In this document: positions 9,597-61,943 of the stretch, in pieces | How the letters are laid out: each line of letters starts with the position of its first letter | How positions within the stretch are numbered: the stretch's first letter is position 1 | IMG/VR virus record: IMGVR_UViG_3300045988_145627 | Location: 22,146-86,145 of that record | Reading direction: 5' to 3' (one strand) | Source of the DNA: a virus | Taxonomy: Duplodnaviria > Heunggongvirae > Uroviricota > Caudoviricetes | Length of the DNA: 64,000 nucleotides | Made by a program: the position numbers and the translations under genes | Notes under the pieces: model-generated | Databases searched by the model: none | Told to the model about the DNA's origin: nothing | What the model saw: the letters and a program-made list of their open reading frames with translations, nothing else

Positions 9597-9742
9597 TAAC
9601 AGCCATTGATTCTCGCCTAAAAATTCTAAGGCAGCACCTACCATTTAACCTTTACACCGCAGCCGTAGGCATTTAGGCTATATCACATATAAGAAAACAA
9701 GTTGTTTCAGACAATAATAATAGACGCAAAGGGAACTCTCCA

Positions 9743-10411
9743 ATGACCAAGATCTTTGTGGTTGGCGGCACAAAGGGCGGGCCTGGCAAATCCACCGTTG
9801 CCCAGCAAATTGCCGTTTGCCTGAAAGTCAAAAAGAAGAAGAAGGTTTATATCACTGATATAGATATTCAGCGCACGACAACAAGCTGGTGTGAAGACCG
9901 TCGACAGAACGAAGACCTTGAGCTGATTCCTTTTGCATACGTTCAGGATGACATCATTAAGCACCTAAAATCGCTTCAGGGTAGAGCTGAGTTTGTAGTG
10001 GTAGATGCTGGTGGCTTTGACTCCGAAATTCAGCGACAAGCGATGCTGATGGCCGACGTTATCATTATCCCGCTTCGTCCTAAGCGTCGTGATTTGAAAT
10101 CTCTGCGTGACATCGATCCTATTATCGACAATGTTCGTAATGTAAACGATAAAGTGAAGGTCCGCGCGGTCATGAACCAGTGCCCGGCTTTGCCATCACA
10201 AGTGTCTCGCATTCTGGCGGCTAAAGAGATTGTCGAGACGTTTGGCATCGAGTCTGCGCCAGTCAATCTATATAACCGCAACGTCTACGATGATGCGGAA
10301 GAGTCTGGTCGTTCTATCTTTGAAATGACCGGTAGCGAGCGCGACAAAAAGGCGGAAGCCGAGTTTGAAGAATTTGTAGATTATCTGTTGAGTCTGGAGG
10401 AAGAAGAATAA
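9743..10411 (+). CDS. parA: ParA-family partition ATPase (small type)
   Basis: Deviant Walker A GGTKGGPGKST near the N-terminus, 222 aa; followed by a small overlapping partner gene. Confidence 0.8.
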   Translation: MTKIFVVGGTKGGPGKSTVAQQIAVCLKVKKKKKVYITDIDIQRTTTSWCEDRRQNEDLELIPFAYVQDDIIKHLKSLQGRAEFVVVDAGGFDSEIQRQAMLMADVIIIPLRPKRRDLKSLRDIDPIIDNVRNVNDKVKVRAVMNQCPALPSQVSRILAAKEIVETFGIESAPVNLYNRNVYDDAEESGRSIFEMTGSERDKKAEAEFEEFVDYLLSLEEEE

Positions 10412-10770
10412 TGTCCATGAAAATGGGTGACCTAGCAAAGCGCAAAGAGCCTGATGCACCGGCCAAGAACACAACTCCTTTGCGCCAACCAGTCAGACCA
10501 CAGGGACGCCCGACTCGTGGCAAAGAGAAAATTAAAAGCCGCACAATGTCACTGGAAGACGAATACTTCGAACTGCTGGAGATGATGAAGTTCATCCCTC
10601 GCTTCGAGAAATTCACCCGCTCTGATGTGATTCGTGCTGCTATTTTCCATCTTGCGGAGAAGACACCGCAGGAAATCGAGGACATCGTAAAGCTGAACGA
10701 GGCGATCACAGCTGCCGATGTCACGATGCGTACCGATGAAATTAAACGCGAGTTGATGAAGAAAGGTTAA
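10411..10770 (+). CDS. Partition centromere-binding protein, ribbon-helix-helix type (ParG-like)
   Basis: 119 aa, basic disordered N-terminus then SLEDEYFELLEMM..RSDVIRAAI segment typical of RHH folds; TAATG overlap with parA. Confidence 0.55.
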   Translation: MSMKMGDLAKRKEPDAPAKNTTPLRQPVRPQGRPTRGKEKIKSRTMSLEDEYFELLEMMKFIPRFEKFTRSDVIRAAIFHLAEKTPQEIEDIVKLNEAITAADVTMRTDEIKRELMKKG

Positions 10771-10771
10771 T

Positions 10772-10800
10772 AATGTGGGCTGTCTAGCCCACATTATTTT
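10772..10800 (+). terminator. Rho-independent terminator after the partition operon
   Basis: aatgtgggctgtctagcccacatt perfect hairpin followed by T-rich run. Confidence 0.75.
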
Positions 10801-10821
10801 AATTAAAGTGGAGTGATAATT

Positions 10822-11574
10822 ATGCATTCGTTAGTATTTGCATTTAAAAACATACTCAAGAATGTTATAAACATACTAGGGATGTTAAATATTTTTTTGT
10901 CTGTGAGGGTGAGGAGAAAAGATATAAAAGATAAAATAAAGGAACTTAACAAAGAAAAAGAACAATTAAAAAGCGAAGAAATTATTATTGATTTATACAA
11001 GAAAAAACTCGCATCTAGCAAGGGGAAAGCTAATGATAAAATCAAAGGAAAAATTATTCACTATATTATTGCTAGAGAGTTGGGGAATGATCCTGATAAT
11101 GAAGATTTTCGACATAATCTTTTTACAAAGATAAAAGAATCAGAAGAACAGGTTGAAGTTCTGGTTCATCAAAGAGAAGTAAGTGAGCAGGCGAACAAAA
11201 AAGAAACGGTTGTCAATTTGTTTTTATTGTATGAAAAAAATAAATTGTTTAAAGCTAAGGGGTTGGCTGTGTTTCTTATAGTTATAAACTTAATTATAGT
11301 TGCGACTCTCGATCTTCCAGCTTGGTCATTGATTATAAGTTTTTTTATTCTCTCTTTGATTATGTTGAAAGATCAGATACTTACTATTCGTGTCTCTAAA
11401 GGATATTTTGGCACAAGTGCGTATGAAGCGGTTCAATTGCTTAAATTCATCAGAGAAAATTCAGACAAATTTGACTCAGATGATAATGACGGTAGCCCAC
11501 GACGGATATTGAATCCGAAGGGAACAACAAAAAAATCAGACAACCTATTCGATAAAGGGTGGCAAAATGTTTGA
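10822..11574 (+). CDS. Hypothetical membrane protein, very low-GC gene (first of an overlapping pair)
   Basis: ORF-track frame 10813-11574; ATG at 10822 with GGAG 8 nt upstream; Lys/Glu-rich central region, hydrophobic segments LAVFLIVINLIIVATL and SLIISFFILSLIML. Confidence 0.45.
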   Translation: MHSLVFAFKNILKNVINILGMLNIFLSVRVRRKDIKDKIKELNKEKEQLKSEEIIIDLYKKKLASSKGKANDKIKGKIIHYIIARELGNDPDNEDFRHNLFTKIKESEEQVEVLVHQREVSEQANKKETVVNLFLLYEKNKLFKAKGLAVFLIVINLIIVATLDLPAWSLIISFFILSLIMLKDQILTIRVSKGYFGTSAYEAVQLLKFIRENSDKFDSDDNDGSPRRILNPKGTTKKSDNLFDKGWQNV

Positions 11575-11989
11575 CCTTGACGCCATCACTAAGTTCTTAA
11601 ATCAGTGTTTTGATCTACTTTTGCTCAAGCAGCCTTTAAGAACTGTTTTCGGAATACTGATTGGTTTCATTATTTTTGTTTTTGTTTACACGTTTAGGTT
11701 TGCGATAGCTCAAGATTTTTATGAAATAGATGGCGTGCATTACGCTGCATGTTTCGTCATCGGTGTTTTAGTTGTTCACACAAGAACATTTTTTGACGTT
11801 ATCAAGGGCACCGCAGTTGATGAAGAAATAGATAGTATGATCAGAGTTATTACGAAGCAGCCACACCTATCTAACCATCAAAAAAACATAATGATTGCTG
11901 AAATACTTCAAAAAGAAATTGCAGCCATAAGTCAAAAGAGATTGGATAAAGTTGCACAAGAAATGACGGAGAAAAAGACAACTGATTAA
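11567..11989 (+). CDS. Hypothetical membrane protein, low-GC (second of the pair)
   Basis: ATGTTTGA overlap with the upstream gene; two hydrophobic segments (VFGILIGFIIFVFVYTF, AACFVIGVLVV). Confidence 0.45.
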   Translation: MFDLDAITKFLNQCFDLLLLKQPLRTVFGILIGFIIFVFVYTFRFAIAQDFYEIDGVHYAACFVIGVLVVHTRTFFDVIKGTAVDEEIDSMIRVITKQPHLSNHQKNIMIAEILQKEIAAISQKRLDKVAQEMTEKKTTD

Positions 11990-12160
11990 TTTAATTACCT
12001 GTTTCTGTATATAAATAATAAGTAACTTATTAAATATATATACGGAAGCAGGTCTTTTAAAAGACACCCACCAGAACAACTCCCTTCCGTTTCCACTTCC
12101 AAAAACTGCCACCAGTCGCTATCATCCGCTCATTGTGATAAGTAAGTAACTACCTACTAG

Positions 12161-12910
12161 GTGAGCCACATGAGCCAAATCTTTTTCGATACCATCGACA
12201 ACAACCAGTACGACTTCATGACAGAGTGGAATACCGCTGTTATGGACAAGTGGGTTGCTGAAAACATTGGTTTGTCGCGCTGCAAAGACGAGGCTGAACT
12301 CTTCGAGACGAAGTGGTTTGATTACCGCGACATGCATCCTCTCATGGCCACCTGCCTTTTTACGGAGGCATACAAACGTCAGTACTCAAATATCATGCTG
12401 ACGCACGGTCGCGAACACTTTGAAACAGCTCCGTTCACCACCGGGTTAAAACGCCTGCCTTATCAGGAGTTGTCGACTGCCAATAAAACGTCTCTATGGA
12501 AAGCACGCCAGTTTGCTGACCGCTATTGCTGCTCATACGACTACTTTATCTCCACCGTTCTTTCCGCAGCTGCACGACGGCTGTGGGACAAGCTGCCGCG
12601 CCCACAGCATTTATGGCAGCCAGAACTGATTGAGATATTTGAAGAGAAATTAGCCAGACGCGCAACAACCCGTCTGGATGACTCTCTGGTTAGCTTTAAG
12701 TATATGGGAGACATGCAGTTCAACCCGATTCAGGAAAGCTATTTTGAGTGGATTCTGGAGCGTTTGCGCACCATCCCTCGCAGTAAGCGCATACGCGCAA
12801 TTTTCTCCGCTATCTGGCTAATGGAAATCGTTCCAGAGCGCCTTATTTCCGCCCACTTTCCAGAAGAACTGGAAGAAGCACGGCGGTTTATTGATCCCCT
12901 ATCTAATTAA
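12161..12910 (+). CDS. Hypothetical protein (249 aa)
   Basis: ORF begins with GTG at 12161, alternative ATG at 12170; no recognisable motif. Confidence 0.5.
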   Translation: MSHMSQIFFDTIDNNQYDFMTEWNTAVMDKWVAENIGLSRCKDEAELFETKWFDYRDMHPLMATCLFTEAYKRQYSNIMLTHGREHFETAPFTTGLKRLPYQELSTANKTSLWKARQFADRYCCSYDYFISTVLSAAARRLWDKLPRPQHLWQPELIEIFEEKLARRATTRLDDSLVSFKYMGDMQFNPIQESYFEWILERLRTIPRSKRIRAIFSAIWLMEIVPERLISAHFPEELEEARRFIDPLSN

Positions 12911-12953
12911 CTAATACTAGAAAACAATTTGTTTAAAAAACAAAGGAAAGCAC

Positions 12954-14294
12954 ATGACCGAACTTTGCCATACAGGACGCGGGCTGTCCGAAGAGTTTGA
13001 TGAAGATTTCCAGAACAGACTGACGGCATATTTTTGTCGTGATCACGAGTTTCTTACTCGTGCGGGAGATCTGGTTGTGCCTAGCCAATTTGCCAATGCG
13101 GCCAATGCCATATTGGTTAATATGGTTTCGGGCTATTACCGTATGTACAAGAGCGCGCCCTCTTCATCTGCAATTCTGGATATGCTTAAGCGTGCGAAAC
13201 GCGATAAGACTATCCGTGAGGAACTATTCGCCGATGTTGTTGCTGCGTTTAAGCGCATCCTTGCAGAAAAATTGTCCGATACCTCGTACATGGTTGACCA
13301 GGTATCAACCTTCGCAAAAAGCGTAGCGTTTGATGATGCTCTGATTAAGGCTGCTGAACTGAAAGAGAAGGGCGACTTTCAGGGGGCGATGGCAATCATG
13401 GCCAAGGTTCAGCAGATAGGCTCGAACGAAGCAACCGGAATCTATGACTACTACATCTCAGCAAGTGAGCGACTGAAAGCGCGTGAATATGAGGCCTCAG
13501 AGGAGTATGTGCCAAACAGCATTACAACTGGACTCCCTCTGCTCGATAGGTTGCTGTACCAAAAAGGCTGGGCGAAGCGTGAAATGGTGCTCTTCATGGG
13601 GTTCGCTAAATCCGGTAAATCGACCGCAATGGGTGAGTTTTCCATAAACGCAACGCTTGCTGGCTACAATGTTCTGTATCTCTCGCTGGAGGTTCACACC
13701 ACCATTTTATCCGACCGTTTTGATGCAAGATTGTCGGAGACAGAAATGTCCAAGCTGGTGGAACGGCGCGATGAGGTTCATCGTAAGTTGGCAGAGTTGG
13801 GAGCCACGAAGGGGATTGGTAGTTTGTGGGTGGTTGAGCGTCCGTCAGGAAGTATGTCACCGGCAGATCTGGACCGTATGCTTAACAGCATGAAAGCCAA
13901 CGGCATGGTGCCTGACATGGTTGTTGTCGACTACGCAGATTTGATGCGTGCCAGTTATGACCTTCGTGATGATCGCGCCAACATTCGTAGTATCTACACC
14001 GATTTACGTGCTCTTTATGACAAACATAACGTTGCTGGAATCACGGCATCGCAGACAAACCGTGAAGGTGGCGCGTCAGAAGTTGCCACAATGATGCACG
14101 CCGCCGACAACATCGAAAAAGTACGTATTGCTGACCTGGTAATAACGATCAACAAAACCGAAGAAGAAGAAGCGAAAGGAGAGGCTCGTCTCTACTTTGC
14201 TGGTTCACGTAACCAGCAGGGAGGGATCAGCATTCGTGTTAAACAAAACCTCGAACAAATGCGCTTCATTGAGCGAATCTTAGACGTTACCTAA
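12954..14294 (+). CDS. dnaB: Replicative DNA helicase, DnaB family
   Basis: Walker A GFAKSGKST, Walker B VVVDYADLM, ITASQTNREG motif typical of DnaB C-terminal domain; conserved AAAGGAAAGCACATG start context. Confidence 0.8.
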   Translation: MTELCHTGRGLSEEFDEDFQNRLTAYFCRDHEFLTRAGDLVVPSQFANAANAILVNMVSGYYRMYKSAPSSSAILDMLKRAKRDKTIREELFADVVAAFKRILAEKLSDTSYMVDQVSTFAKSVAFDDALIKAAELKEKGDFQGAMAIMAKVQQIGSNEATGIYDYYISASERLKAREYEASEEYVPNSITTGLPLLDRLLYQKGWAKREMVLFMGFAKSGKSTAMGEFSINATLAGYNVLYLSLEVHTTILSDRFDARLSETEMSKLVERRDEVHRKLAELGATKGIGSLWVVERPSGSMSPADLDRMLNSMKANGMVPDMVVVDYADLMRASYDLRDDRANIRSIYTDLRALYDKHNVAGITASQTNREGGASEVATMMHAADNIEKVRIADLVITINKTEEEEAKGEARLYFAGSRNQQGGISIRVKQNLEQMRFIERILDVT

Positions 14295-14309
14295 AAAATA
14301 AGCGTGGAG

Positions 14310-14335
14310 AACACCTCCACGCTTGATTCATTGGT
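14310..14335 (+). terminator. Hairpin between helicase and primase genes (agcgtggag..ctccacgct)
   Basis: 9-bp inverted repeat; weak T tract; may act as attenuator. Confidence 0.3.
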
Positions 14336-14375
14336 GAAACAACTTTTCTTTTGCCAAACCACAAAAGAAAAACAC

Positions 14376-15557
14376 ATGAGCCTTTATGTTATATCAACAT
14401 TTAGGTTGGTCACAATATTGCCTGTTAAAAGTGGAATTATCGTGAGCGAGCTGAAAGAGATAATTACCGAATTAGATTTTGAACAATGGTTGGACACTGA
14501 AGGTATCGTTTATCGACGTGGAGGCGTGAGTTCTCGCGGTCGTGAAGTGAATATCAAAGAGTGTCCGGTATGCGGCAGCTCCAACTGGAAGGTATATTTC
14601 AATCTGACCAGTGGCGTCGGCAAATGCTTTGCTGGTGATCATCCCGAAGAGATTCAGTTCAATAAGCTGGTCTTCCTCAAGCACTACAGCGGTAAATCAC
14701 GACGACAGTTCGAGGAATATGTGCAGAACGCTCTTCTTTCCCAGGGGTGGGCACCAAAGAAAGAAGAGATAGTGCTTACAAGCACAGTCGAGTTAGAGGG
14801 ACCACTTGCACTCCCTCGTCATTACGAACTTCCTATAGATGGCCGTCTTCCAGACTATCTGGTTGAACGAAACATATCGCCTGAAATGGCAAAGTATTTT
14901 GACCTACGATACTGCGTCGAAGGCAAGCACGCTTATGTAGATCCGTATACAGATCAGGTAAAAGGACAGATATTCGATATGCGAGTACTGATACCGGTTT
15001 ACGATCTGGATGGGGTAATGAAGACATTTCAGGGACGAGACATTACCGGTACAGCAGACCGCCGCTACCTCTTTCCTATGCAGCTTCCAGCTTCAGGTAA
15101 GTTTCTCTACAACGGCCATAATGCAGTTGGCAAACAGACTGTAGTTGTCTGTGAGGGGGCGTTCGATGTTATGGGAGTTAAACGAGCTATTTTTGATGAA
15201 GAAACATTACGTGATTACGTGGAACCGATAGGAACGTTCGGGATGCATCTATCTGGTAACACCACTCAGGATGCAGAAGATCAGTTAGGCGCGTTCCTGA
15301 CGCTCAAGGCGCGTGGGTTACGTAATGTGATCATGATGTGGGATAGTGAAAAGCAAGCTATACGCAACACGATGGCCGCAGCCAGGCGATTGACCAGTAT
15401 TGGTCTTAATGTCAAAGTTGCGTGTTTGGGCGAGGAAGGACTCGACCCCGGCGATGCGACACCGGGGCAGATTATCAAAGCCTACTATTGCGCAAAACCT
15501 TACTCACGACAGCTTGAACTTTTAAGCAAGGTAAAAGGTATAGCAGCATTAGTTTGA
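14376..15557 (+). CDS. DNA primase (zinc-binding N-terminus plus TOPRIM domain)
   Basis: CPVCGSSNW..GKCF zinc-ribbon-like motif, VVVCEGAFDVMG TOPRIM glutamate motif; start set at the ATG preceded by the conserved AGAAAAACACATG context (ORF-track frame begins at 14304). Confidence 0.65.
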   Translation: MSLYVISTFRLVTILPVKSGIIVSELKEIITELDFEQWLDTEGIVYRRGGVSSRGREVNIKECPVCGSSNWKVYFNLTSGVGKCFAGDHPEEIQFNKLVFLKHYSGKSRRQFEEYVQNALLSQGWAPKKEEIVLTSTVELEGPLALPRHYELPIDGRLPDYLVERNISPEMAKYFDLRYCVEGKHAYVDPYTDQVKGQIFDMRVLIPVYDLDGVMKTFQGRDITGTADRRYLFPMQLPASGKFLYNGHNAVGKQTVVVCEGAFDVMGVKRAIFDEETLRDYVEPIGTFGMHLSGNTTQDAEDQLGAFLTLKARGLRNVIMMWDSEKQAIRNTMAAARRLTSIGLNVKVACLGEEGLDPGDATPGQIIKAYYCAKPYSRQLELLSKVKGIAALV

Positions 15558-16586
15558 ACCAGTATTAGTCACGTAAACATTGACCGAAAATGATTTAACT
15601 TCTGTGTTGAAGTTGTCAGTCATTACCGCGAGGTAGGCATTCTTGGTATCTCTGAATTGCTTCAGGATGATTTGAACGTTATCGGTGCAAACAAACGAGG
15701 TAGCCAGATTGCCTCCTTTCTCTGAAAAATCCTTTAGGAAAGTGCAGTCAATTTTGCCATCATTAGCGGTGAAGGTGGCATCATCACCCTGCCAGGTAAA
15801 TGTTGCGTTAACGCCTTTATCAATGGATTTAGCAATAAGTCGTTGAGTGGAGGATTTTGCTTTAGATCTTGCAGCTGATGGTTGGTATTTACCGCTTTCT
15901 TTTAGTTCTGCAATGTAATCACAGCCATTTTTATCTTCTTTATCGCAAGCTGCCTGATAAAGCTCAGCTGCTTTTTTATAATCTTTTTTAACCCCTTCAC
16001 CATACTCATACATAATGCCAAGATTCGCCAATGCAGATGCACTGCCTAGTTCGATTCCTTTTTTATAATACTCTATTGCCTTTTTGTAGCTTTTTGGCAC
16101 GCCTGCGCCAACATAATATAACTGTCCTAAATATGACGCAGATTCAGGGTCGCCAGCCTCTACTGCAAGTTTGTGATATTTCAGGGAAAGTTTTTGGTCT
16201 TTCTTACCCGCAAGTCCTTTATGATAAATAACACCCAGATTGTGATAAGAGTTGCCTCCAGCTGCATCACCAGCTTTCTTAAAGAGTTCCTCTGCCTTTT
16301 TGAAATTTTTATCAACCCCATACCCAAGGGCATACATTATACCTAGAGCATTAAACGCTTCTTTGTTCCCCTTAGAAGTCGCCAGTTCAAGCCATTTTCT
16401 GGCTTCATCGTAGTTTTTTTCGACACCATGAATACCTTTCATATAGTCGATACCTAAAGCACTCTGTGACTCAACGTCGCCTGCTTTTGCCGCATCGATC
16501 AGCTTTTGTATTTCATAGGCATGTGCACTCCCCGAAACAAGTAATAGCGACAACATAAAGAAAGATATTGGTTTGAAATGTTTCAT
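15549..16586 (-). CDS. Secreted Sel1-like repeat protein with non-repeat C-terminal domain
   Basis: N-terminal signal peptide MKHFKPISFFMLSLLLVSGSAHA; about eight 36-aa Sel1-type repeats; opposite strand to neighbours. Confidence 0.65.
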   Translation of the reverse strand: MKHFKPISFFMLSLLLVSGSAHAYEIQKLIDAAKAGDVESQSALGIDYMKGIHGVEKNYDEARKWLELATSKGNKEAFNALGIMYALGYGVDKNFKKAEELFKKAGDAAGGNSYHNLGVIYHKGLAGKKDQKLSLKYHKLAVEAGDPESASYLGQLYYVGAGVPKSYKKAIEYYKKGIELGSASALANLGIMYEYGEGVKKDYKKAAELYQAACDKEDKNGCDYIAELKESGKYQPSAARSKAKSSTQRLIAKSIDKGVNATFTWQGDDATFTANDGKIDCTFLKDFSEKGGNLATSFVCTDNVQIILKQFRDTKNAYLAVMTDNFNTEVKSFSVNVYVTNTGSN

Positions 16587-16767
16587 TTTTGGATTTTCAC
16601 AAGATGGTTAGGTGGTTGTGGCTACTCGGTGTAAGGCTTTGTAATCACCGATTGGTAAGGTTACTTCAATTTAGCTTAACTGTCAGCATACCCAATCGCC
16701 GAAAAGATAAGTAGATGATTACTTATTAGTGTGTAAGAATACTGCCATCTGTTAGCTAGGAGTTGGT

Positions 16768-17550
16768 ATGAAAGACGAAATTCAGAAATTAGCCTGCGAC
16801 ATCATTGATAAAACTGGTTTAGAAATCAGCGAGAGCAATCGGCTAGACATCATTGAAAAAGCCGTCAATACGGCAATGGATCATATCGCCACTCGTTTAG
16901 TCGAGATCCCGCTACCGGGGCTACCTTATCTGAAGGTTAAGTTGCGCGTATGGGGCGAACCTGCACATGCACGACGTTCTGCATTAGTTGTTTTTGTACG
17001 CAAAGAAAACTTACGAACTCTAAAAGTGCAGGTTGGGGCGTGGTTTGATGGCAGAGTCATCTATACAGATACCATTATCTGTCCTCCAGGTGACGAACAT
17101 ATTGAAGCCGTCATTCGAGAATCAATTCGAGCTATGCGCAGTTTAGCTTTGCTGGAAGACAAGCAAAACTTTGAAGATTACTTGCTGTCGGTAAAAGCTG
17201 AACCAACATTGTCTCTGAAAGCCGATTTCGTCACCCCGACAAATCTGTTGGAGGTTTTGATTAATAAAGGGGCTAATGATGCTGTAAACCTAATCAGGGA
17301 GAGCGAATATTCGACTCTTTGCGACATGTGCAAAAGCCAGTTGGATCTTGTGCATATCATTGTTGATGCGGGGAAGGCGTGTGATGGCGTAATGGCGGAA
17401 TTTGCTGGGAAGATGGTCAGGATTGCTAACGAATTACCGATGATAGAGCAAGAGGCCAAATCATACGCCACCAATCATGTCACAGAGCTTCTTGCCCCCT
17501 ATCGCTTAGAAAGCGATCAGCGCAAGATGATTAGCTGGGGAAGTTGGTAA
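16768..17550 (+). CDS. Hypothetical protein (260 aa)
   Basis: ORF with GGAG SD; no recognisable motif. Confidence 0.5.
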   Translation: MKDEIQKLACDIIDKTGLEISESNRLDIIEKAVNTAMDHIATRLVEIPLPGLPYLKVKLRVWGEPAHARRSALVVFVRKENLRTLKVQVGAWFDGRVIYTDTIICPPGDEHIEAVIRESIRAMRSLALLEDKQNFEDYLLSVKAEPTLSLKADFVTPTNLLEVLINKGANDAVNLIRESEYSTLCDMCKSQLDLVHIIVDAGKACDGVMAEFAGKMVRIANELPMIEQEAKSYATNHVTELLAPYRLESDQRKMISWGSW

Positions 17551-17617
17551 GCTCTCTGTGTGTCGTTTTTTACGCAAATAATGATAGGTAAGCACAAGAT
17601 TATTTCTGGCGGTAATT

Positions 17618-18088
17618 GTGAAAGCTGATTTGTCAAAAATCCCTTCTATTTCAGGAAATAACGGTTATTCACTTCGTTGTGAGGAAGTAAAGATAAACGG
17701 TGAGTCGGCATATTGCAGCTATTCCGTTTGCCAGCACACCATTCTTGCCTTCAAAGAAAACCGTCTTCCTCGAACTTCTTTCCAGTCGTGCGCAACCGCT
17801 ATTAAAGCAGGCAAATGTAAGGCGTTAAAAATGATGGTTGAAGAGATTCGTAAAGGAGAATCTCTGTATTTCGCAGATATGACCGCACTCATTAAGGAGG
17901 TTGAAGAACGGAATAAACAAGCCAGATCTATAAAACGAAAACGTGACAGTGTAACGATTAATAGCATGGTTAAGAAGAGCGCCACATCACAAACAGCGAT
18001 CACTGACGTGTATGCGGCGTTGCTTGAAGAAACAACAAAAGAAACACATGAGCAAATCGATCAACATATGGAGGCAAAACAACAATGA
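17618..18088 (+). CDS. Hypothetical protein (156 aa)
   Basis: ORF; start uncertain. Confidence 0.4.
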   Translation: MKADLSKIPSISGNNGYSLRCEEVKINGESAYCSYSVCQHTILAFKENRLPRTSFQSCATAIKAGKCKALKMMVEEIRKGESLYFADMTALIKEVEERNKQARSIKRKRDSVTINSMVKKSATSQTAITDVYAALLEETTKETHEQIDQHMEAKQQ

Positions 18089-19407
18089 AAAAGTTGATCG
18101 CACTTAAGCATAAGCTGGACGAAATGAAAGCTATGGGAACCAATGCAAAAAAAGAGGCATTGGCCAACATGGATGACTTTGAACAAAGCATGGTTTCATT
18201 GATGCTCAACCCTTTCATCCGTTTTGGGGTAAAGAAATACAAAGTGGCAGAGCCGCTTAGTGAGTCCGTCCCAAGTGACGAAAAAGCCATTGATGTACTG
18301 AATAAGCTGGCCTCTCGCGAGCTGACGGGGAACGCAGCAATAGCTGCTGTTGAGTCTATCGTGGCGTCAATGTGCGCCGATGGGCAGGACGTGTTCCGTC
18401 GTTTCCTCTTAAAAGACCCGAAAGCGGGTGTTGGGATTAGCCTATGCAACAAGGTTTTTGAAAATCCCATTCCGAAATTCGAGGTGCAGCTGGCGTCACC
18501 GTATAAAGAAAAAGGCGACAAATACCCCTTCAAGCCAAACCCTAAAGCAAAATGGCCGATGATTGGCAGCCTTAAGCTCGATGGTTTGCGAGTAATTTGC
18601 GAGGTTATTGTTGACGAAGAAGAGGTTAACTTCCTTTCTCGTACTGGTAATCCAATCACGTCTCTCGATCACCTAAAGCCAGCCATGCTCGAATTAGGCA
18701 AACTTTCAGGCCACAAACACATCTTCTTCGATGGTGAAGGCACAGCCGGTTCATTTAACCAGTCCGTATCTGCATTGCGCAAAAAGAACGTGCAGGCAAT
18801 TGGCGCTATTTATCATGTTTTCGACTTCTTCCTACCGGAATGGCGAGCACAGGCTAAATCCAAAGAGTATGCAAAGACATGTATGAAGCTGAAAGAGCGC
18901 CTGGCTATGCTCGTGGCGTTGTTCAAAAACGATCGCAGTGAAGGCTACGCACAAGACATTCACCTGCATCCGTTCTACATCATCCATAGCCACGAAGACT
19001 TCATCGAACGCTTCATGAAACGCCTGGACGATAACGAAGAAGGGGAGATGGGCAAAGATCCGAACTCTGTTTACGAGTTTAAACGTACCCGCAGCTGGTG
19101 GAAGTTAAAAGACGAAGATTCAGAAGATGGTGAAATTATCGATTTTGAGCCGGGCGACCCGGACTCTGGTTTTGCCAACACGCTTGGAAAAATTGTTATT
19201 CGTCTTGAAAACGGCGTCATCGTTCGTGCGAGCGGCATTAAGCATAAATATCTGGACGAGATCTGGAACAACAAAGAGAAGTACCGTGGTCGCATTGTCG
19301 AGGTTCATTGTCACGAGAAAACACCTGATGGCAGCTTACGCCACCCACGACTGAAATGGCCGCGTTGCTTACGCGATACCGAAGATCGAATCGGAGATAA
19401 AGAATGA
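18085..19407 (+). CDS. ATP-dependent DNA ligase
   Basis: Motif I KxDG in SLKLDGLRVI; size (440 aa) and position within the replication block. Confidence 0.7.
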   Translation: MKKLIALKHKLDEMKAMGTNAKKEALANMDDFEQSMVSLMLNPFIRFGVKKYKVAEPLSESVPSDEKAIDVLNKLASRELTGNAAIAAVESIVASMCADGQDVFRRFLLKDPKAGVGISLCNKVFENPIPKFEVQLASPYKEKGDKYPFKPNPKAKWPMIGSLKLDGLRVICEVIVDEEEVNFLSRTGNPITSLDHLKPAMLELGKLSGHKHIFFDGEGTAGSFNQSVSALRKKNVQAIGAIYHVFDFFLPEWRAQAKSKEYAKTCMKLKERLAMLVALFKNDRSEGYAQDIHLHPFYIIHSHEDFIERFMKRLDDNEEGEMGKDPNSVYEFKRTRSWWKLKDEDSEDGEIIDFEPGDPDSGFANTLGKIVIRLENGVIVRASGIKHKYLDEIWNNKEKYRGRIVEVHCHEKTPDGSLRHPRLKWPRCLRDTEDRIGDKE

Positions 19408-19619
19408 TCGTATTAAGTAAACGGGAGAAAGAAACGCTTCATGAAATTAGTAAGTGGCCGGAGTTCCCTGAGTACTGGAAGCCTAAAACGCGAGCTAAGT
19501 TAGAGCGTTTAGGGTTGGTTGCAAACGTTTCTGAAACGTGGTGCTCGGCCAACTACCAGTTAACTGATAAAGGGAAATTATTGCTACAGCAATTAGTAGA
19601 ATCAAGAGCCTTTAAATGA
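19404..19619 (+). CDS. Hypothetical small protein (71 aa)
   Basis: ORF overlapping the ligase stop (ATGA). Confidence 0.3.
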   Translation: MIVLSKREKETLHEISKWPEFPEYWKPKTRAKLERLGLVANVSETWCSANYQLTDKGKLLLQQLVESRAFK

Positions 19620-19764
19620 TTCCATACATCTCATTGGCTTTTATGGCTGGCTTCCTTATCGGCTTCGGCATCTGTCGTGATTTGATTAAGCAGGAACTTA
19701 AAACCAAAACACTGTGCATCGGGAAGCGTGTGTATCGGGTAGTTCATGAAACAAAGGTGAGAAC

Positions 19765-20055
19765 ATGAGCAATTTAACTTCTTGGGACTGGTGGTTGGTA
19801 CACTATTTCTTAGCGGCCGGAGTCGCATTCGCCTTTTACGTAGGTCAGTTAGTCGTAAAACTGTTGCTGATTAAATTTGCTAGTCATAAACGTATCGATG
19901 ATGGTCTGTGGCGTCTTGGCACCCTGGTGGAAACTCGCTACGGGCAACTTAAGGAGAACGAAACCATTACTATCCAAGCGAAACGATTCACTGCCACCAT
20001 CACAAGAACACCTAGTCGTAGAGTGGCCTTGATCAAAAAAGTCACAACCGAATAA
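19765..20055 (+). CDS. Hypothetical small membrane protein (96 aa)
   Basis: Hydrophobic N-terminus WWLVHYFLAAGVAFAFYVGQLVV. Confidence 0.3.
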   Translation: MSNLTSWDWWLVHYFLAAGVAFAFYVGQLVVKLLLIKFASHKRIDDGLWRLGTLVETRYGQLKENETITIQAKRFTATITRTPSRRVALIKKVTTE

Positions 20056-20833
20056 AAACACAAAGATAAGTATTTACTTACTTATCTTTTATGTATAAGA
20101 TGACTTTGTTTTCGTTGAGACGCGACTGTTTGAACTTAAATACAAGTGCAAACGAAGAAGTCTATCTGGCAGTAGCCTAATAAGCCAAACACCAGCGAGG
20201 TCAGTTTCCAGCCTCGTTACCGAAATGGGACACACTGAGCGAGTGTGATTGCAGAACGCAGGAGGGAACATTCATGTTCCCTCCGATGAAGTAACAGAAT
20301 GGGCGGTTGGTATATTTTCAACTCCATATGACTCCCGGATTCTTAGCCACTGACCGCCCATCCTGTTACGTCATTTTGTTCAATTATGTCGTTTATACTG
20401 GGTTAAAAAGCGGCGACGTAGCCCGGCTGGTATGGTTAGCCAGCACACAACGTTGAGGCCATTACATTTTTATTAATTCTAAGGTTCTATTCACAGAGAT
20501 ACCGGCGAGCGTTGATATGTAACATGTTGGGCAAACATTCAATCGGAGTAGTGGCCTCAACGTTGTGAAGACAGGATTGTTGTGTAGGTTTAACCACTGT
20601 TGCCATTGGTGCCTGTTTTCACAACAAATGATTCCATACATCACATTGTATAAATTACAAAGTAGGTGCTGTCCTCAGAAACATCATCTACTTAAAGATT
20701 TTGCCTTCTACTATTGAGCGAAGTCGAAAGCGTCTGGCACTAACGAAAAGTGCAAGTAGCGGTGCGTTTCCTGGCAGAAACTAAACCGTCGCGATTGGCA
20801 CTGTTGAGTAATAAATACTGGCAGTGCCGAATT

Positions 20834-20908
20834 GATGGTGTAGCTCAGCGGTAGAGCAGTTGGCTGTTAACCAACTGGTCGGTGGTTCGAATCCGTTAAC
20901 CGGCACCA
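20834..20908 (+). tRNA. tRNA-like sequence, anticodon GTT (Asn); acceptor and T stems are imperfect, so possibly a pseudo-tRNA
   Basis: Canonical D-arm gctcagcggtagagc, perfect anticodon stem gttgg/ccaac with loop ctGTTaa, T-loop ttcgaat and 3' CCA; acceptor stem has 2 mismatches and T stem 3 G-U pairs. Confidence 0.4.
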
Positions 20909-24822: not shown

Positions 24823-25073
24823 TGTTACAACCTTTGCGCGTTCAATTCTCTCTGGTAAGTGCTTACCGATATTACATCAAAGGTTAGGGTTGTAAAGCTA
24901 TTATCATTTTTTTCGGCAGGCACTTTAAAGACCGGACAAAGACCAATGCATGGTGAAAAACTAGCCCCAAATAGGTAAGAAAATTAACTTGCATCTAATA
25001 TGGATGTATTCAGTATTGATATAAATTTTAGTAGTATTCCTTACAATAGTATAAGTAAGAATGGATTGATTGA

Positions 25074-25286: not shown

Positions 25287-25384
25287 TCCCTCTTCTACCT
25301 GCGCGAATGGCTTAGTTCCCTGTTCGCGCAGTGCTACATTAAACACACTAGTAAATAATTTGTTTTCATAACAAAGGATTAGCC

Positions 25385-27493: not shown

Positions 27494-27588
27494 TTAGAAT
27501 AGCCTTAATGATAAGTAATCACTTACGATATTTGATGGTATATTTATATAAGAAGTTGAAAGCTCATTAGAAAACAAAGGAAAAACGC

Positions 27589-38891: not shown

Positions 38892-38917
38892 AGGCGTCCA
38901 GTTGGACGCCTTTTTTA
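38892..38917 (+). terminator. Rho-independent terminator (aggcgtccagttggacgcct + T6)
   Basis: GC-rich hairpin plus TTTTTT. Confidence 0.8.
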
Positions 38918-38966
38918 TCGCAATTATCTTATTAAGAAAACAATTTGTTTAAAAGAATAAGAAAAC

Positions 38967-39392: not shown

Positions 39393-39447
39393 TCGCCTAT
39401 TCATAACTAACAAAATAAGTAAACACTAACCACAAAAGGAAAAACAC

Positions 39448-47942: not shown

Positions 47943-47975
47943 TTTCATTGATAGGTAAGTGCTTATCTATTAACA

Positions 47976-50368: not shown

Positions 50369-50437
50369 GTAAGCCTTGTTTAAACACATAAGATAACAAC
50401 TTGTTTAAACGCACCAAAAAAGAAAAAGGAAAAACAC

Positions 50438-51580
50438 ATGTCATATTCAACGTTCCGTTTGGGTGCTAATGATGCAACCAAAGAGCCTATGTTCCTCGGA
50501 CAATCTGTCAACGTGGCACGTTACGATCAGCAAAAATACCGTGATTTTGAAAAGTTGATTGAACGTCAATTGTCTTTCTTCTGGCGGCCGGAAGAAGTTG
50601 ATATTTCGAGCGATCGTATCGACTTCAACACGAAGCTGCGGGACCACGAACGTCACATTTTTCTGAGCAATCTCCGTTATCAAACGTTACTCGATTCAGT
50701 TCAGGGACGTAGCCCAAATGCAACGCTGCTGCCGCTTATCTCTATTCCTGAACTGGAAACGTGGGTTGAAACATGGTCTTTCTCTGAGACTATCCATAGC
50801 CGCAGCTACACCCACATTATTCGTGGCATGGTGGACGATCCGAGTATTGTTTTTGACGGTATTGTTACGGATGAAGAAATCATCAACCGAGCGATCAGTA
50901 TCTCTGCTGAATATGACAGGCTTTATAGGATGACCTGCGAGCGCCAGTCGTTAGGTGAGAAAGAGTTTGAACGTCTGTACGTAAATGAATATGGCTGGGA
51001 GCCATACCCTTTGCACCGTCAGCTTTTCCGCACGTTGGTGTCCATTAATGCGCTTGAGGCGATCCGTTTCTATGTAAGTTTTGCATGTACGTTTGCCTTT
51101 GGCGAACGGAAGTTGCTTGAGGGTAACACCAAAATTATGCGCTTTATTGCCCGTGATGAAGCTCTGCATTGCGAAGGAACTGAACGCATGATCCGCTTCA
51201 TGCGTACCGGTCGCGAAGGTTTATTGTGGAAAGAGATTGCTGCTGATGAAGAAAACGTCATTTACGACACCATGAAATCAGTCGCCGAACAAGAAATGAA
51301 CTGGGCAGACTATCTCTTCAAAGACGGTTCGATGATTGGTTTAAACGCGGATATTCTGAAGACCTATGTAAAATACCGCACCAATCTGGCTATGAATCGT
51401 CTTGGCCTGAAGGCTTTATTTCCAGAAGTTACCACAGATCCGCTGGTCTGGATGAACAAGTGGTTGTTAACCGACACACTGCAAATTGCACCACAAGAGG
51501 CAGAGCAAAGCACATATCTGGTAGGTCAGATCGATTCTACCGTGGACAAGGCTTCTCTAAGCCAGTTTGCAGACCTGTAA
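50438..51580 (+). CDS. nrdB: Ribonucleoside-diphosphate reductase small subunit (NrdB)
   Basis: 380 aa; iron-ligand and radical-site region (..[12 protein letters not shown].., ..[24 protein letters not shown]..). Confidence 0.85.
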
Positions 51581-52620: not shown

Positions 52621-52697
52621 ATCTGTCTGGTCTTGTTCTCTCAATGAATGTAAACTCACACGATGAATAAGTAATTACTTATCTTTGTGAGGTTTTT

Positions 52698-57475: not shown

Positions 57476-57533
57476 TTGCTATACATAAAACCAAATGCAA
57501 AAATAGGTAATCACTTACCTATCGAGAAAGAAG

Positions 57534-59125: not shown

Positions 59126-59719
59126 ATGACGACGAAGACACCAGCCCGATCGCAAGCAAAAACTCGCAAAAAAGCCAAAAACAAAAATTCTCCCCGCACC
59201 AATCCCACAACGCCTGTCGTAGAGTTCAATCCCCAGCTCAAAACCGTGAAAATCTTTAGTGATGGCTCTTGCCTTAAAAATCCGGGTGGCCCGGGCGGTT
59301 ACGGTATCGTTCTCCAGTATCGTGGTGAGGAACGCGAGTTCTCAGATGGTTTTCATAGCACCACCAATAACCGCATGGAGATGATGGGCGCACTTATCGG
59401 GCTGGAGCGTTTGAAATATCCATGCAACGTTATTTTGTACTCTGATAGCCAGTATCTGAAAAACGGCATGACACAGTGGATGAAATGGTGGAAACGTAAT
59501 GGATGGATGACTTCTGATAAAAAACCGGTAAAGAATGTTGATCTGTGGAAACGTCTGGATGAGGCCGCAAGTCGACATAATGTTCGCTGGAAGTGGGTTA
59601 AAGGTCACGCCGGGCATCGTGAAAATGAAATATGTGATCGACTCGCGAAGATCGCAGCTTTTTCAGCAGCAGATATGCCTCACAAGAAAGATATTGGTTT
59701 TGTTTATAACAAGTGGTAA
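59126..59719 (+). CDS. rnhA: Ribonuclease HI
   Basis: [74 protein letters not shown] closely match E. coli RNase HI as I recall it; start placed at the ATG with AGGAG SD (ORF-track frame begins at GTG 59075). Confidence 0.85.
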
Positions 59720-59864
59720 GTAAGTGTTTACCTATCATTTTAAATCATGTATCTTATCAGCGTCAGGATGACAATGTGTCGGTAAGACACAGTTCCAGGA
59801 TGGAACGAGAAAGGCGGCTGGCAATCGCCAGCCGCAACTCTTTCTGACATTGGATGGAGTCCAC

Positions 59865-60557: not shown

Positions 60558-60650
60558 CGGTTGTTAGTGCATATGCATTGACCGTCTTTTCGTAAGCAAT
60601 TCATGTAACTAGAAAACAACTTGTTTTAACAAATAACAAAAGGAAAGCAC

Positions 60651-61076
60651 ATGTTAGGTTTATTCAAAAAGAAAACTCGTAAAGCTGTTATCGAGGTCAA
60701 AAAAATGGAGAACCGAGATGCGGTTGAAGCCACCGTGTGGGGCGCGTACATGATCTCCTATGCCGATGGCACATGCGACGCAAAGGAAATTTCCATTCTT
60801 GAGAAAACAATTGCAGCTCTGCCTGCGTTTTCTCCGTTTGCTGGTGAGATTGCCCAAATGAGCGCCAATATCCGTGCTCAATACGAAGCCTCACCGCGCC
60901 GCGCTAATGCCCAGGCTTTACGTGAGCTGGCTGATGTGGCCGGGACTAATGATGCAGTAGATGTACTGTGTCTGTGCCTTGATATTGCCGACCAAGACGG
61001 TATTGGCGAACAAGAAGAGCTGGCACTGAAAAAGATCGCACAGGCGCTTCAGTTGTCACTGGATGCTTATCTCTAA
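60651..61076 (+). CDS. TerB-like (tellurite-resistance TerB fold) protein candidate
   Basis: 141 aa with two halves each carrying an ADG/DQDG..EE..L..I pattern (MISYADGTCDAKEISILEKTI; LDIADQDGIGEQEELALKKIA); AACAACTTGTTTT box upstream. Confidence 0.45.
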   Translation: MLGLFKKKTRKAVIEVKKMENRDAVEATVWGAYMISYADGTCDAKEISILEKTIAALPAFSPFAGEIAQMSANIRAQYEASPRRANAQALRELADVAGTNDAVDVLCLCLDIADQDGIGEQEELALKKIAQALQLSLDAYL

Positions 61077-61234
61077 TGCTTGAGAGATTCCGGCTTGTGA
61101 CCGTCATTGCTCTTCTGGTGATGGCGGTGTTGGTGGATTTTACGGGAAAGATGATGTCTGTCATTTCTGATGGCGTCCTCATTGGTCTGGCGATCTACTT
61201 CGCTTATCCGCTAGTCCGTAAAGCAACGTGTTAA
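61076..61234 (+). CDS. Possible small membrane protein (~52 aa) overlapping the TerB-like stop (TAATG)
   Basis: Translation MLERFRLVTVIALLVMAVLVDF..VLIGLAIYFAYPLV; below ORF-track cut-off; followed by a terminator. Confidence 0.3.
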   Translation: MLERFRLVTVIALLVMAVLVDFTGKMMSVISDGVLIGLAIYFAYPLVRKATC

Positions 61235-61236
61235 TG

Positions 61237-61265
61237 ACAAGGGCCAAATGGCCCTTGTGTTTCGT
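61237..61265 (+). terminator. Rho-independent terminator (acaagggccaaatggcccttgt + T-rich)
   Basis: Hairpin followed by gtttcgttg. Confidence 0.6.
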
Positions 61266-61373
61266 TGACCGAAATAGAGAGTTTGCACCTTTACGTTTAG
61301 CTTGCTCCCCTTTTATGCCACATCACAATAAAGCCAATAAGAAAACAACTTGTTTAAGCATTAGGAAAAACAC

Positions 61374-61943
61374 ATGTGCAAGAAATGCAAAGCGATAGCT
61401 GATGAACAAAACGCCTTATTCGAAGAAATGGATGCTAATGAACTGGTCAAAATGTTAGCCATTCTTCGAGGAATAGAAGACGTTTCCATATTTGAGAGAG
61501 TGGTTACAGCACTTAATTTTGAGTCCACCTTTGAAGAGCCAACTCAGGTTGTAGCTTTAGCACATCATTTCGGTGTTCATTATCTTGCTGAAAAAGAGCG
61601 CGCTGATAAGTTGCAGGCGACTTTGGATATGGTGAGCGAGACTCAACGAACTGATGACACTAACAAGAGTGAGGCGATTATTGCCAGCAAAGATCGTGAA
61701 ATTGCTGGGCTTAAATCCTCTCTAACGATGTTGATGTCTGCGTTCAATCTTATGTCTTCTCAGGCGGGTTATAAAATGCCATCACTAAACAGCGATGATC
61801 CGATGGCCGTTCGTCAGCTTTTGGGAGCAATGGCCGACCAACTCGACGACACAAAGAGTCGGCTTGAAGACATGATGCGTGAGTTAAGCCATCGACATAA
61901 CCTCGCAACACAGCCACACAAAGCCTTTCAAAGCTCTAATTGA
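61374..61943 (+). CDS. Hypothetical protein (189 aa)
   Basis: ORF with AACAACTTGTTTAA box and conserved AGGAAAAACACATG start context. Confidence 0.45.
   Translation: MCKKCKAIADEQNALFEEMDANELVKMLAILRGIEDVSIFERVVTALNFESTFEEPTQVVALAHHFGVHYLAEKERADKLQATLDMVSETQRTDDTNKSEAIIASKDREIAGLKSSLTMLMSAFNLMSSQAGYKMPSLNSDDPMAVRQLLGAMADQLDDTKSRLEDMMRELSHRHNLATQPHKAFQSSN

Follow-up and report, generated by a model that had tools for sequence, protein, structure and literature searches.

A conserved 13-base palindrome at promoter-like sites of a gene subset in an SSU5-type phage-plasmid

Palindrome copies in the window and the genes that they precede

The window analyzed here (64,000 nucleotides) belongs to an SSU5-type Escherichia coli phage-plasmid with 96-98% identity to phage Cyrano. 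A 13-base palindrome, AAACAANTTGTTT, was detected in this window in five exact copies (positions 9695, 12922, 38938, 60614, and 61343), compared with 0.01 copies expected from dinucleotide-preserving shuffles, and a further copy with one mismatch, TAACAACTTGTTT, was found at 50394 before nrdB (Table 1). All six palindromes that the original prediction had placed before named start codons were thus recovered, with 16-35 nt separating the end of the palindrome from the ATG (35 nt for parA). When copies with at most one mismatch were considered, seven of eight were intergenic, although intergenic DNA makes up only about 14% of the window (binomial P = 7 × 10−6); the exception, at 11238 within a coding sequence, is probably a chance occurrence. 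The ttgtttaaac sequence near 50378, which had been taken for a second copy at nrdB, is present but fills the -10-like position of the module described below and forms no second palindrome. Weaker sites in the window were found to have better preserved counterparts in related genomes, including: (i) the site of the cobT-like gene (core at 25353), with intact orthologues in SSU5 (42729) and pJN2-26 (91040); and (ii) the decayed copy before ORF 63001, where the orthologous positions carry perfect sites in SSU5 (82468) and pJN2-26 (19224) and the leader aatggtgcaat..ATG is shared. A terminator hairpin (38892-38911) lies 26 nt ahead of the ORF 38967 site, and a terminator-like hairpin (61237-61258) lies ahead of the ORF 61374 site. 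With terminators positioned just upstream of sites, a new transcription unit would have to begin there.

Table 1. Coordinates of palindrome sites, start context, and parA operon genes in the window
Feature	Position	Strand	Remark
Forward site AGA-AAACAAGTTGTTT-CAG, before parA (ATG 9743)	9692..9710	+	exact match
parA, small ParA/MinD-type ATPase, 222 aa	9743..10411	+	Pfam MipZ/AAA_31/CbiA matches
Candidate binder gene, 119-aa protein; start overlaps parA stop	10411..10770	+	probable ParG/omega-like RHH protein
Forward site AGA-AAACAATTTGTTT-AAA, before DnaB-like helicase gene (ATG 12954)	12919..12937	+	exact core
Weakened forward site AGT-AAATAATTTGTTT-TCA, before cobT-like gene (ATG 25385)	25350..25368	+	one core mismatch
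Forward site AGA-AAACAATTTGTTT-AAA, before ORF 38967-39392	38935..38953	+	exact core
Forward site AGA-TAACAACTTGTTT-AAA, before nrdB (ATG 50438)	50391..50409	+	one mismatch
Forward site AGA-AAACAACTTGTTT-TAA, before TerB/TciA-like gene (ATG 60651)	60611..60629	+	exact core
Forward site AGA-AAACAACTTGTTT-AAG (full consensus), before ORF 61374-61943	61340..61358	+	exact core
Start context AGGAAAAACACATG, example copy	61363..61376	+	exact; others 39437-39450, 50427-50440
Decayed copy AAACAAATCTTTT, before ORF 63001 (DUF4942 methylase-like)	62973..62985	+	two mismatches

The palindrome had also been described as followed by an invariant start context. This context, AGGAAAAACACATG, is real and enriched yet not invariant: it was exact at only three starts (39448, 50438, and 61374), matched with one mismatch at four further starts (14376, 27589, 34373, and 43384) compared with 0.05 expected, and fit the starts at 29005 and 37841 only when an insertion or deletion was allowed. 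The exact context followed only two of the six palindromes, with GGAAAGCACATG after two more, and contexts of the AGGAAAAACACATG type were also found at seven genes devoid of a palindrome. Because few palindromes precede the context and seven genes have the context alone, the two elements are separable; AGGAAAAACACATG is a separate, strong ribosome-binding context of leader-preceded genes that is mechanistically untied to the palindrome. CAC-ATG was found at 12 of 40 leader-preceded genes but at none of the 20 genes that are tightly packed. A second palindrome family, TAGGTAAGT..ACTTACCTA, was found to mark a different, non-overlapping gene set: among 41 leader-preceded genes, 7 have the palindrome described here, 14 have the second family, and none has both. 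The gene of an HTH immunity-type repressor carries a palindrome of the second family (GGTAAGTGCTTACC at 24854) and not of the AAACAANTTGTTT type. This partition is consistent with the idea of a defined gene subset.

Conservation and anatomy of the site

The palindrome is the commonest palindrome with 6-bp arms in Cyrano, SSU5, pJN2-26, and KpPF25 p2, with 9-16 perfect copies per genome and, across these four family genomes together, 76 sites when one mismatch is allowed. At orthologous promoters it forms a conserved island in diverged intergenic DNA, as observed for parA (five-genome alignment) and the DnaB-like helicase gene (four-genome alignment), and all 73 metagenomic relatives carry it ahead of parA. 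Sites are kept at the orthologous core genes parA, dnaB, terB, and terS even in the divergent KpPF25 p2, where protein identity to Cyrano is often only 30-60%. Individual sites vary in their retention; that of the TerB/TciA-like gene is kept in pJN2-26 and KpPF25 p2, and that of nrdB is kept in SSU5, degenerate in pJN2-26, and missing at this gene in KpPF25 p2. Site density is highest in the mosaic accessory region (e.g., eight sites in Cyrano 93-98 kb). When IMG/VR was examined, the multi-copy palindrome was confined to SSU5-type contigs, with the 18 other matches being singletons or pairs. Cross-genome conservation and the shuffle controls together exclude local A/T richness as a trivial cause of the motif.

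Built around the palindrome core, the full site, AGA-AAACAAnTTGTTT-AAg, is 19 bases long and asymmetric. Among 44 forward sites, the 12 arm positions were 89-100% conserved, while other positions of the module varied. Since the differences that do occur in one arm (AAACAT.. or ..TTATTT) are not compensated on the opposite arm, it is the bases of this dyad-symmetric site that are conserved rather than their pairing. Upstream of the sites the consensus includes a TGnGATAAT-like sequence at -22 to -14 and CCA at -9 to -7, with T at -14 from the site in 93% of cases, indicating a fixed spacing to a -10-like box; the distance to the start codon, by comparison, varies from 7 to 44 nt. The TGn of an extended -10 was present in about half of the sites. 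A simple sigma-70 scan on the + strand detected no canonical -35/-10 pair ahead of the window sites. Because this hexamer pair was not found and A occupies the '-11' position of the -10-like box in only 48% of sites, we infer rather than observe that the module is a promoter and that the palindrome lies at about +8 to +20. The original prediction argued against a -35/-10 promoter from the short distance to the start codon, which is only half right. The palindrome itself is indeed not a -35/-10 element, but a conserved promoter-like module includes it as an integral component, and it probably falls within the region that is transcribed first.

Of the 76 copies, 24 (about a third) are inverted. 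These carry the same 19-mer reversed and lie outside of 5′ leaders, either upstream of promoters or after terminators, typically following terminator hairpins. An upstream copy at a distance of 50-52 bp was detected for 6 of the 44 forward sites (exactly 51 bp for four of these), so that paired reverse and forward sites are a minority.

Expression in lysogens and the parA operon

RNA-seq of the LF82(Cyrano) lysogen (PMC9928086, S1 table) revealed that 12 of 13 palindrome-preceded genes were at background, with the parA operon the only one expressed (values of 50-90 versus a median of 9.8). As a group, the palindrome-preceded genes displayed no statistical contrast in level (Mann-Whitney P = 0.64), since the bulk of phage genes is silent in the lysogen in any case. 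The silence of the gene set fits repression; it could equally mean that these genes need an activator.

The parA gene is the first of this sole expressed palindrome-preceded operon, and the gene that overlaps its stop codon (10411-10770; CYRAN_29) had a value of 89 in the same lysogen data. Its product probably is a ParG/omega-like ribbon-helix-helix (RHH) centromere-binding protein, as judged from its sequence: (i) a disordered N-terminus followed by helices is predicted; (ii) homologues of down to 48% identity retain an invariant KIKSRTMS strand and FTRSDVIRAAI helix; and (iii) a weak match was found to the RHH family aCcr1 (E = 2 × 10−4). The protein family is confined to SSU5-like contigs. 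Since the motif and all candidate binders are confined to the SSU5 group, co-occurrence does not separate the candidates. The links between this probable RHH protein and the sites are gene position, expression, and the parallel invariance of the putative DNA-reading strand and the motif, and these make it the best candidate for the palindrome binder. Before parA, a single palindrome (two inverted 6-mers) and no array of adjacent short repeats was found; extra TTGTTT half-sites were detected at this position only in KpPF25 p2.

A proposed operator and its alternatives

The palindrome most likely serves as the docking site of a single shared regulator at the promoters of one gene subset. We favor, at somewhat better than even confidence, its function as the DNA operator of a dispersed regulon that is silent in lysogens with the exception of the parA operon. 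The earlier suggestion of an operator for a dimeric DNA-binding protein agrees with the conserved bases, the inverted copies outside of leaders, and the fixed spacing to the -10-like box. In the proposed arrangement, a (TGn)GATAAT-like box would be followed after about 6 nt by CCA as the presumed start, n-AAGA, the palindrome, an A-rich leader, and a strong Shine-Dalgarno sequence, such that the palindrome would fall within the RNA polymerase footprint. A regulator encoded by the phage-plasmid would bind both 6-bp arms, as one dimer or two, and would hold the dispersed promoters under common, mainly negative, control during plasmid life. This regulon would include parA, dnaB, the cobT-like gene, ORF 38967, nrdB, terB/tciA, and ORF 61374 in the window and, elsewhere in the genome, numerous small accessory genes along with the terS late operon. 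Inverted copies over the -35 region or just past terminators may provide a second contact at some promoters. The most likely binder is the probable RHH partition protein, whose gene is expressed in lysogens as part of an operon that bears a palindrome and would hence control itself.

The absence of a canonical -35, an only moderate -10, and the lysogen silence of the palindrome genes would also suit a positive promoter element, with a lytic phage activator or an RNA polymerase-modifying factor binding the palindrome to switch genes on. The terS late operon shares its module with genes of early type, and a second candidate binder, the highly conserved winged-helix-like protein CYRAN_123 (78-89% identity), is silent in lysogens and encoded just upstream of the terS sites. 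We regard such an activator as unlikely, since the parA operon bears a site and yet is on in lysogens where the activator would be absent, the TGn extended -10 in about half of the sites should need no activator, and proteins bound near +14, where the site would be centered, normally block RNA polymerase.

Translational control, raised originally as the other option, fared less well. T4 RegA is known to repress translation of many mRNAs, and FljA is reported to be a Salmonella repressor of fliC that binds the fliC mRNA leader. A full-length FljA homologue (PF03614, E = 1 × 10−80) belongs to the core gene set of the SSU5 family, being encoded outside the window and present in all SSU5-type records searched; it could bind a leader hairpin to repress many mRNAs. 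The forward sites resemble the FljA-fliC system in lying in presumed leaders beside a Shine-Dalgarno sequence like that of fliC. Unlike that system, the inverted copies, which would read differently as RNA, the anchoring to promoters, and a weak hairpin argue for a DNA site, and the distance to the ribosome-binding site varies. As RNA, the hairpin is marginal (-0.5 to -1.7 kcal/mol), the 13-mer alone does not fold, palindrome-bearing leaders are no more structured than shuffles, and an Rfam search of the window found no family at the palindrome, the sole match being a tRNA elsewhere. A profile of 46 forward sites had no match in fliC leaders (nhmmer, 75 loci), and the resemblance of the palindrome core to the fliC leader (4 mismatches in 12; about 0.14 expected per leader by chance) is not significant. 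The FljA homologue also diverges to 36% identity in KpPF25 p2, where the motif is unchanged. We therefore consider an RNA-level operator improbable, and repression of host flagellin is suggested as the simpler role of this homologue.

Recognition of the palindrome by a conserved DNA-binding protein of enterobacteria would account for the identity of the motif in Escherichia, Salmonella, and Klebsiella elements, including the divergent KpPF25 p2, with hosts ranging from Escherichia to Yersinia. A host factor is nevertheless very improbable given that the multi-copy palindrome occurs only on SSU5-type contigs in IMG/VR; no regulator of enterobacteria is known to us to have such a consensus, and the sites of KdgR, MntR, Zur, PurR, and IHF have other spacing or arms. 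In T4-type phages, promoter-stem-loop repeats act as recombination joints for gene shuffling, and the membership of the sites in a longer shared module with similar leaders, as well as their density in the mosaic accessory region, could likewise reflect inherited leader-cassette copies, or a by-product of A/T-rich leaders, with no regulatory role. This reading has the least to recommend it in view of the arm conservation amid variable module positions, the retention of sites at orthologous core genes of divergent genomes, and the minute copy number expected from shuffled sequence.

An operator of the proposed kind has several precedents. Omega (pSM19035) and ParG (TP228) are type Ib partition proteins that also act as repressors. 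The parA operon described here is similar in its gene order, a small ParA first and then a small protein, here predicted to combine a flexible N-terminus with an RHH-like C-terminus, and in that sites lie in the promoter region before parA, where the partition site of omega and ParG doubles as operator. In type Ib partition loci generally, the centromere/operator is located upstream of parA and is bound by an RHH protein whose N-terminus is flexible (PMC5016525). Sites are shared by several promoters of one replicon, as for omega, and the two 6-mers, 7 bp apart center to center, may correspond to the omega heptad register. However, omega and ParG bind arrays of 7-bp or 4-bp repeats at one to three loci, in contrast to a single 13-bp palindrome that recurs at about 15-20 dispersed promoters in a constant position downstream of a -10-like box. 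In phage-plasmid P1, C1 operators occur at many promoters, including that of the helicase gene ban, and the scattering of one operator type that includes a replicative-helicase gene is paralleled here; the likeness is at the system level only, as the C1 operators are asymmetric 17-mers (ATTGCTCTAATAAATTT), the palindrome is unrelated in sequence, and the SSU5 family is not known to encode a C1 homologue. The KorB OB site of IncP plasmids is a 13-bp palindrome with 6-bp arms at about 12 promoters. Dispersed palindromes bound by a partition protein that affects expression are thus common to KorB and to SopB of phage-plasmid N15, which has four dispersed IR centromere sites (PMC7205306). These binders are ParB/SopB-type HTH proteins, their sites are unrelated in sequence to the palindrome and differ in number (4 in N15 and 12 in RK2 versus 15-20), and the ParB_N proteins of the SSU5 family (CYRAN_119/120) are silent in lysogens. 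Similar to lac O1 (+11), the palindrome would occupy the downstream part of the stretch covered by RNA polymerase (about +8 to +20 relative to the presumed start) and sometimes has an auxiliary upstream copy; unlike lac O1, it forms a genome-wide set rather than serving a single operon, and its upstream copy overlaps the -35 region at a distance of only about 51 bp. The palindrome would thus represent a switch of a familiar kind, one with no earlier description for the widespread SSU5-type family of phage-plasmids.

Occurrence of the palindrome in the window and in SSU5-type phage-plasmids

The AAACAA-N-TTGTTT palindrome is a genuine, strongly conserved cis-element. The exact sequence AAACAANTTGTTT was found at positions 9695, 12922, 38938, 60614, and 61343 of the window, where 0.01 copies were expected based on dinucleotide-preserving shuffles, and the nrdB copy at 50394 differed by a single mismatch; all six copies of the original prediction were located upstream of the genes it had named. 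At a tolerance of at most one mismatch, eight sites were detected, seven of which were intergenic in a window that is about 86% coding (p = 7e-6).

The window was found to share 96–98% identity with Escherichia phage Cyrano, which in E. coli LF82 is the plasmid-prophage pLF82, and with related E. coli phage-plasmids, and 76–81% identity with Salmonella phage SSU5 and Klebsiella relatives. It includes the tail-gene end, the lysis genes, parA, genes for replication, recombination, and nucleotide metabolism, repA, and a number of accessory genes. As comparators, four whole genomes of the family were assembled, namely those of Cyrano, SSU5, pJN2-26 from Klebsiella, and the divergent plasmid KpPF25 p2, also from Klebsiella. 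In each, AAACAA-N-TTGTTT was the commonest perfect palindrome with 6-bp arms (9–16 copies), and a tolerance of one mismatch gave a total of 76 sites across the four. The palindrome was detected at orthologous positions before parA, dnaB, a cobT-like gene, nrdB, terB, and terS, and upstream-region alignments revealed it as a conserved island within diverged intergenic surroundings. It was also present 5′ of parA in all 73 metagenomic loci that held the parA operon. When IMG/VR was scanned with an 18-mer, 118 stretches were recovered, including 100 that were SSU5-like and 18 others with one to three copies each; the near confinement of the multi-copy palindrome to SSU5-like stretches thus makes it a signature of the SSU5 family. 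To test for co-occurrence of the motif and the candidate binders, an independent lineage with either of them was sought by IMG/VR pattern scan, metagenome scan, and protein searches; none was found, all matches being inside the SSU5 group. KpPF25 p2 was examined for co-variation of motif and regulator; the motif is unchanged in this divergent member, which therefore gives no leverage on regulator identity. No description of the palindrome, or of the regulation of SSU5-type phage-plasmids, was found in the searchable literature.

Several differences between the related genomes were also observed. Only about 73% of window positions 9000–20000 could be aligned to Cyrano, which together with two ORFs absent from the Cyrano annotation (see table) points to strain-specific insertions. 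Rfam detected a single tRNA gene (20834–20905), while the Cyrano record annotates three (Asn, Thr, and Ser) in the corresponding region. A module of an integrase, a helix-turn-helix (HTH) repressor, and a small divergent ORF (23338–25286) is shared by the window, Cyrano, pJN2-26, and KpPF25 p2 and is missing in SSU5 (compared with SSU5 L002, ~42.5–42.8 kb). SSU5 has been termed virulent in one paper, and loss of this module may be the reason.

Coordinates of features in the window and in related phage records
Feature	Location	Strand	Remarks
ORF without counterpart in Cyrano annotation	15549-16586	(-)	345 aa
ORF without counterpart in Cyrano annotation	21404-22738	(-)	444 aa
Intrinsic-terminator-like hairpins	9572-9589, 38892-38911, 61237-61258		26-105 nt upstream of palindromes
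Sites of the second palindrome family	2534-2550, 6755-6771, 12140-12156, 20064-20080, 24854-24867, 27512-27525, 34270-34283, 37794-37807, 43253-43270, 47952-47968, 52668-52681, 57505-57520, 59718-59733
terS palindromes	Cyrano 57-69, 82-94; SSU5 56-68, 81-93 (L006 and L002)		Outside window
FljA homologue	Cyrano L005:31780-32301 = SSU5_121 = pJN226_0046	(-)	Outside window; Pfam PF03614, E = 1e-80
CYRAN_123	Cyrano L005:39051-39317	(+)	Outside window; 88 aa; immediately upstream of terS palindromes

Site architecture and the form of recognition

Alignment of the sites on the palindrome revealed that the full site is an asymmetric 19-mer, AGA-AAACAAnTTGTTT-AAg, which is oriented toward the downstream gene at 48 sites and inverted (CTT-AAACAAnTTGTTT-TCT) at 24. 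The inverted copies were typically positioned directly after a terminator hairpin or 5′ of a promoter-like module, and an upstream copy at 50–52 bp was found for 6 of 44 forward sites. Forward sites displayed a constant spacing to a -10-like box (T at -14 in 93%), with a consensus of TGnGATAAT at -22 to -14 followed by CCA at -9 to -7. Taking the A of CCA as the start would place the palindrome at about +8 to +20 and an inverted partner at about -44 to -32. The box spacing is fixed, while the distance to the start codon varies between 7 and 44 nt; the position of the palindrome is therefore set relative to the promoter-like box and not to the ribosome-binding site. Furthermore, the terminator-like hairpins just 5′ of several window sites imply that a new transcription unit must begin in the short interval holding the module, which we infer to be a promoter. 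A two-hexamer scan around four window sites found no plus-strand match to a canonical sigma-70 promoter; hence, these promoters would have to be (i) of the extended -10 type or (ii) factor-dependent. The order of terminator, promoter, operator, and gene is a 'moron-like' layout that recurs for almost every small gene in the 93–98 kb accessory region of Cyrano. At the beginning of the linear phage records, two tandem palindromes 25 bp apart, followed by a GC-rich hairpin, were also located immediately 5′ of terS, thus placing the late/packaging operon in the same regulon.

As RNA, the palindrome was predicted to form a hairpin of only -0.5 to -1.7 kcal/mol, with the 13-mer alone unfolded; leader structure did not rise above that of shuffled versions, and no Rfam family was detected at the sites. 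The arms were conserved as sequence, with variants such as AAACAT.. and ..TTATTT uncompensated on the opposite arm, and inverted copies outside leaders retained the same flanks. The weak hairpin, uncompensated arms, inverted copies, and promoter anchoring favour a model in which the palindrome would be recognized as double-stranded DNA by a symmetric protein.

The start context AGGAAAAACACATG, an extended Shine-Dalgarno and spacer, had been described as invariant. It was found to be enriched (exact at three starts and with one mismatch at four more; 0.05 expected) but not invariant, and was seen both with and without the palindrome. CAC-ATG occurred in 12 of the 40 genes whose leader was 40 nt or longer, compared with none of the 20 that were tightly packed (Fisher p = 0.005), and the start context was kept at orthologous genes. 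We regard it as a strong ribosome-binding context that the family uses at the first genes of transcription units, distinct from the palindrome.

A second palindrome family and expression in the lysogen

A second dispersed palindrome family, with a consensus of approximately TAGGTAAGT-nn-ACTTACCTA (TAAGTA/GGTAAG type), was identified at a minimum of 14 sites in the window, including upstream of tail-fibre, holin, cobS-like, gp32-like SSB, sbcD, nrdA, thyX, and methylase genes. Among the 41 plus-strand genes preceded by a leader, 7 had the AAACAA type, 14 the TAAGTA/GGTAAG type, none both, and 20 neither. The proposed 'defined gene subset' is therefore real, its members do not overlap with those of the second family, and the promoters are split between at least two operator types. 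The control region of the HTH repressor gene (24436–24822, minus strand) carries a perfect second-family copy, GGTAAGTGCTTACC, and this family is probably the operator set of the lysogeny repressor.

Transcript levels in the Cyrano lysogen were taken from the RNA-seq of an LF82 study (S1 table, PMC9928086). Of the 13 genes directly behind a forward site, 12 were at background (5.7–25.5 versus a prophage median of 9.8). The exception was parA, which at 49.8 exceeded the authors' cut-off, as did its two downstream neighbours (89 and 55), while none of the remaining 15 genes over the cut-off had a site. This profile fits repression in combination with autoregulation of the parA operon, and promoters that depend on an activator would be expected to give the same pattern. 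Palindrome-preceded genes were not significantly different from the rest (p = 0.64), since lysogens leave most phage genes unexpressed. Overall, the palindrome is best explained as a putative operator that serves a dispersed regulon in SSU5-type phage-plasmids. Such an operator would work in a similar way to (i) the scattered operators of P1 C1; and (ii) the promoter-embedded partition sites of omega (pSM19035) and KorB (IncP), but the palindrome lies outside all three sequence families.

Candidate binders and a possible regulatory circuit

Four proteins were considered as binders; annotation by Pfam, PHROGs, and NCBIfam returned mostly 'unknown function' for the small conserved proteins. The best candidate appears to be the 119-aa product of the gene at 10411–10770, the start of which overlaps the parA stop, the same position as that of the centromere-binding partner gene in type Ib partition loci. 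Two elements are invariant among its homologues, even at 48% identity: a KIKSRTMS stretch with a helix after it, and the start of a helix, FTRSDVIRAAI. Both are typical of ribbon-helix-helix (RHH) proteins, a predicted fold for which a weak match to the RHH family aCcr1 was also detected; the N-terminus that precedes them is variable, disordered, and basic. This candidacy is based on (i) the parA-partner position, (ii) the RHH-like sequence, (iii) expression of the gene in lysogens, and (iv) the precedent of type Ib systems, in which binding sites upstream of parA serve also as operators (PMC5016525). A point against it is that the parA leader has one palindrome and no array.

The FljA homologue is a core gene of the family, encoded at full length by every SSU5-type element, and is expressed in the LF82 lysogen. 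It was detected in 831 PLSDB plasmids, including Yersinia pestis plasmids of ~96–137 kb, and in 12 SSU5-type phage records, with two further matches that were short and fragmentary. Its AlphaFold model (pLDDT 83) has two tandem Sm/Hfq-like domains and no HTH. FljA, the Salmonella phase-1 flagellin repressor, is reported to act on the fliC mRNA leader (cited in PMC2652032), an action that the modelled fold would suit. The Salmonella fliC leader is similar to the sites by eye; when compared with the site profile no match was found, and the core resemblance was at chance level. The protein has also diverged to 36% identity in KpPF25 p2, which keeps the motif unaltered, and it is disfavoured as the palindrome binder. 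Its target is more probably the host flagellin, the silencing of which may be a lysogenic-conversion function. The HTH immunity-type repressor is not favoured either, with a control region that lacks the AAACAA palindrome and carries the other one. CYRAN_123 is unusually conserved (78–89% identity across the family), weakly matches winged-helix domains (Sta1/Lrs14/LexA N-terminal domain), and is silent in lysogens; together with the adjacent terS site, this makes it a possible lytic-phase regulator.

A more specific scenario, to which we assign a low probability, is that the RHH-like ParA partner uses the 15–20 dispersed palindromes as both partition sites and operators, so that the plasmid-segregation machinery would directly silence a large group of replication, nucleotide-metabolism, accessory, and late promoters in lysogeny, with the parA operon as a self-regulated hub. 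If true, a global circuit of the omega/KorB kind would operate at phage scale, alongside a separate repressor regulon with TAGGTAAGT palindromes, and the segregation of the plasmid and the silencing of phage genes would clearly depend on the same protein and the same sites. SSU5-type phage-plasmids are frequent in clinical Escherichia, Klebsiella, Salmonella, Enterobacter, and Yersinia. The two palindrome families concretely map two promoter sets that do not overlap, and they supply short DNA probes together with a shortlist of candidate regulators, which make the lysogeny/lysis and plasmid-maintenance circuit of this clinically common family directly testable.
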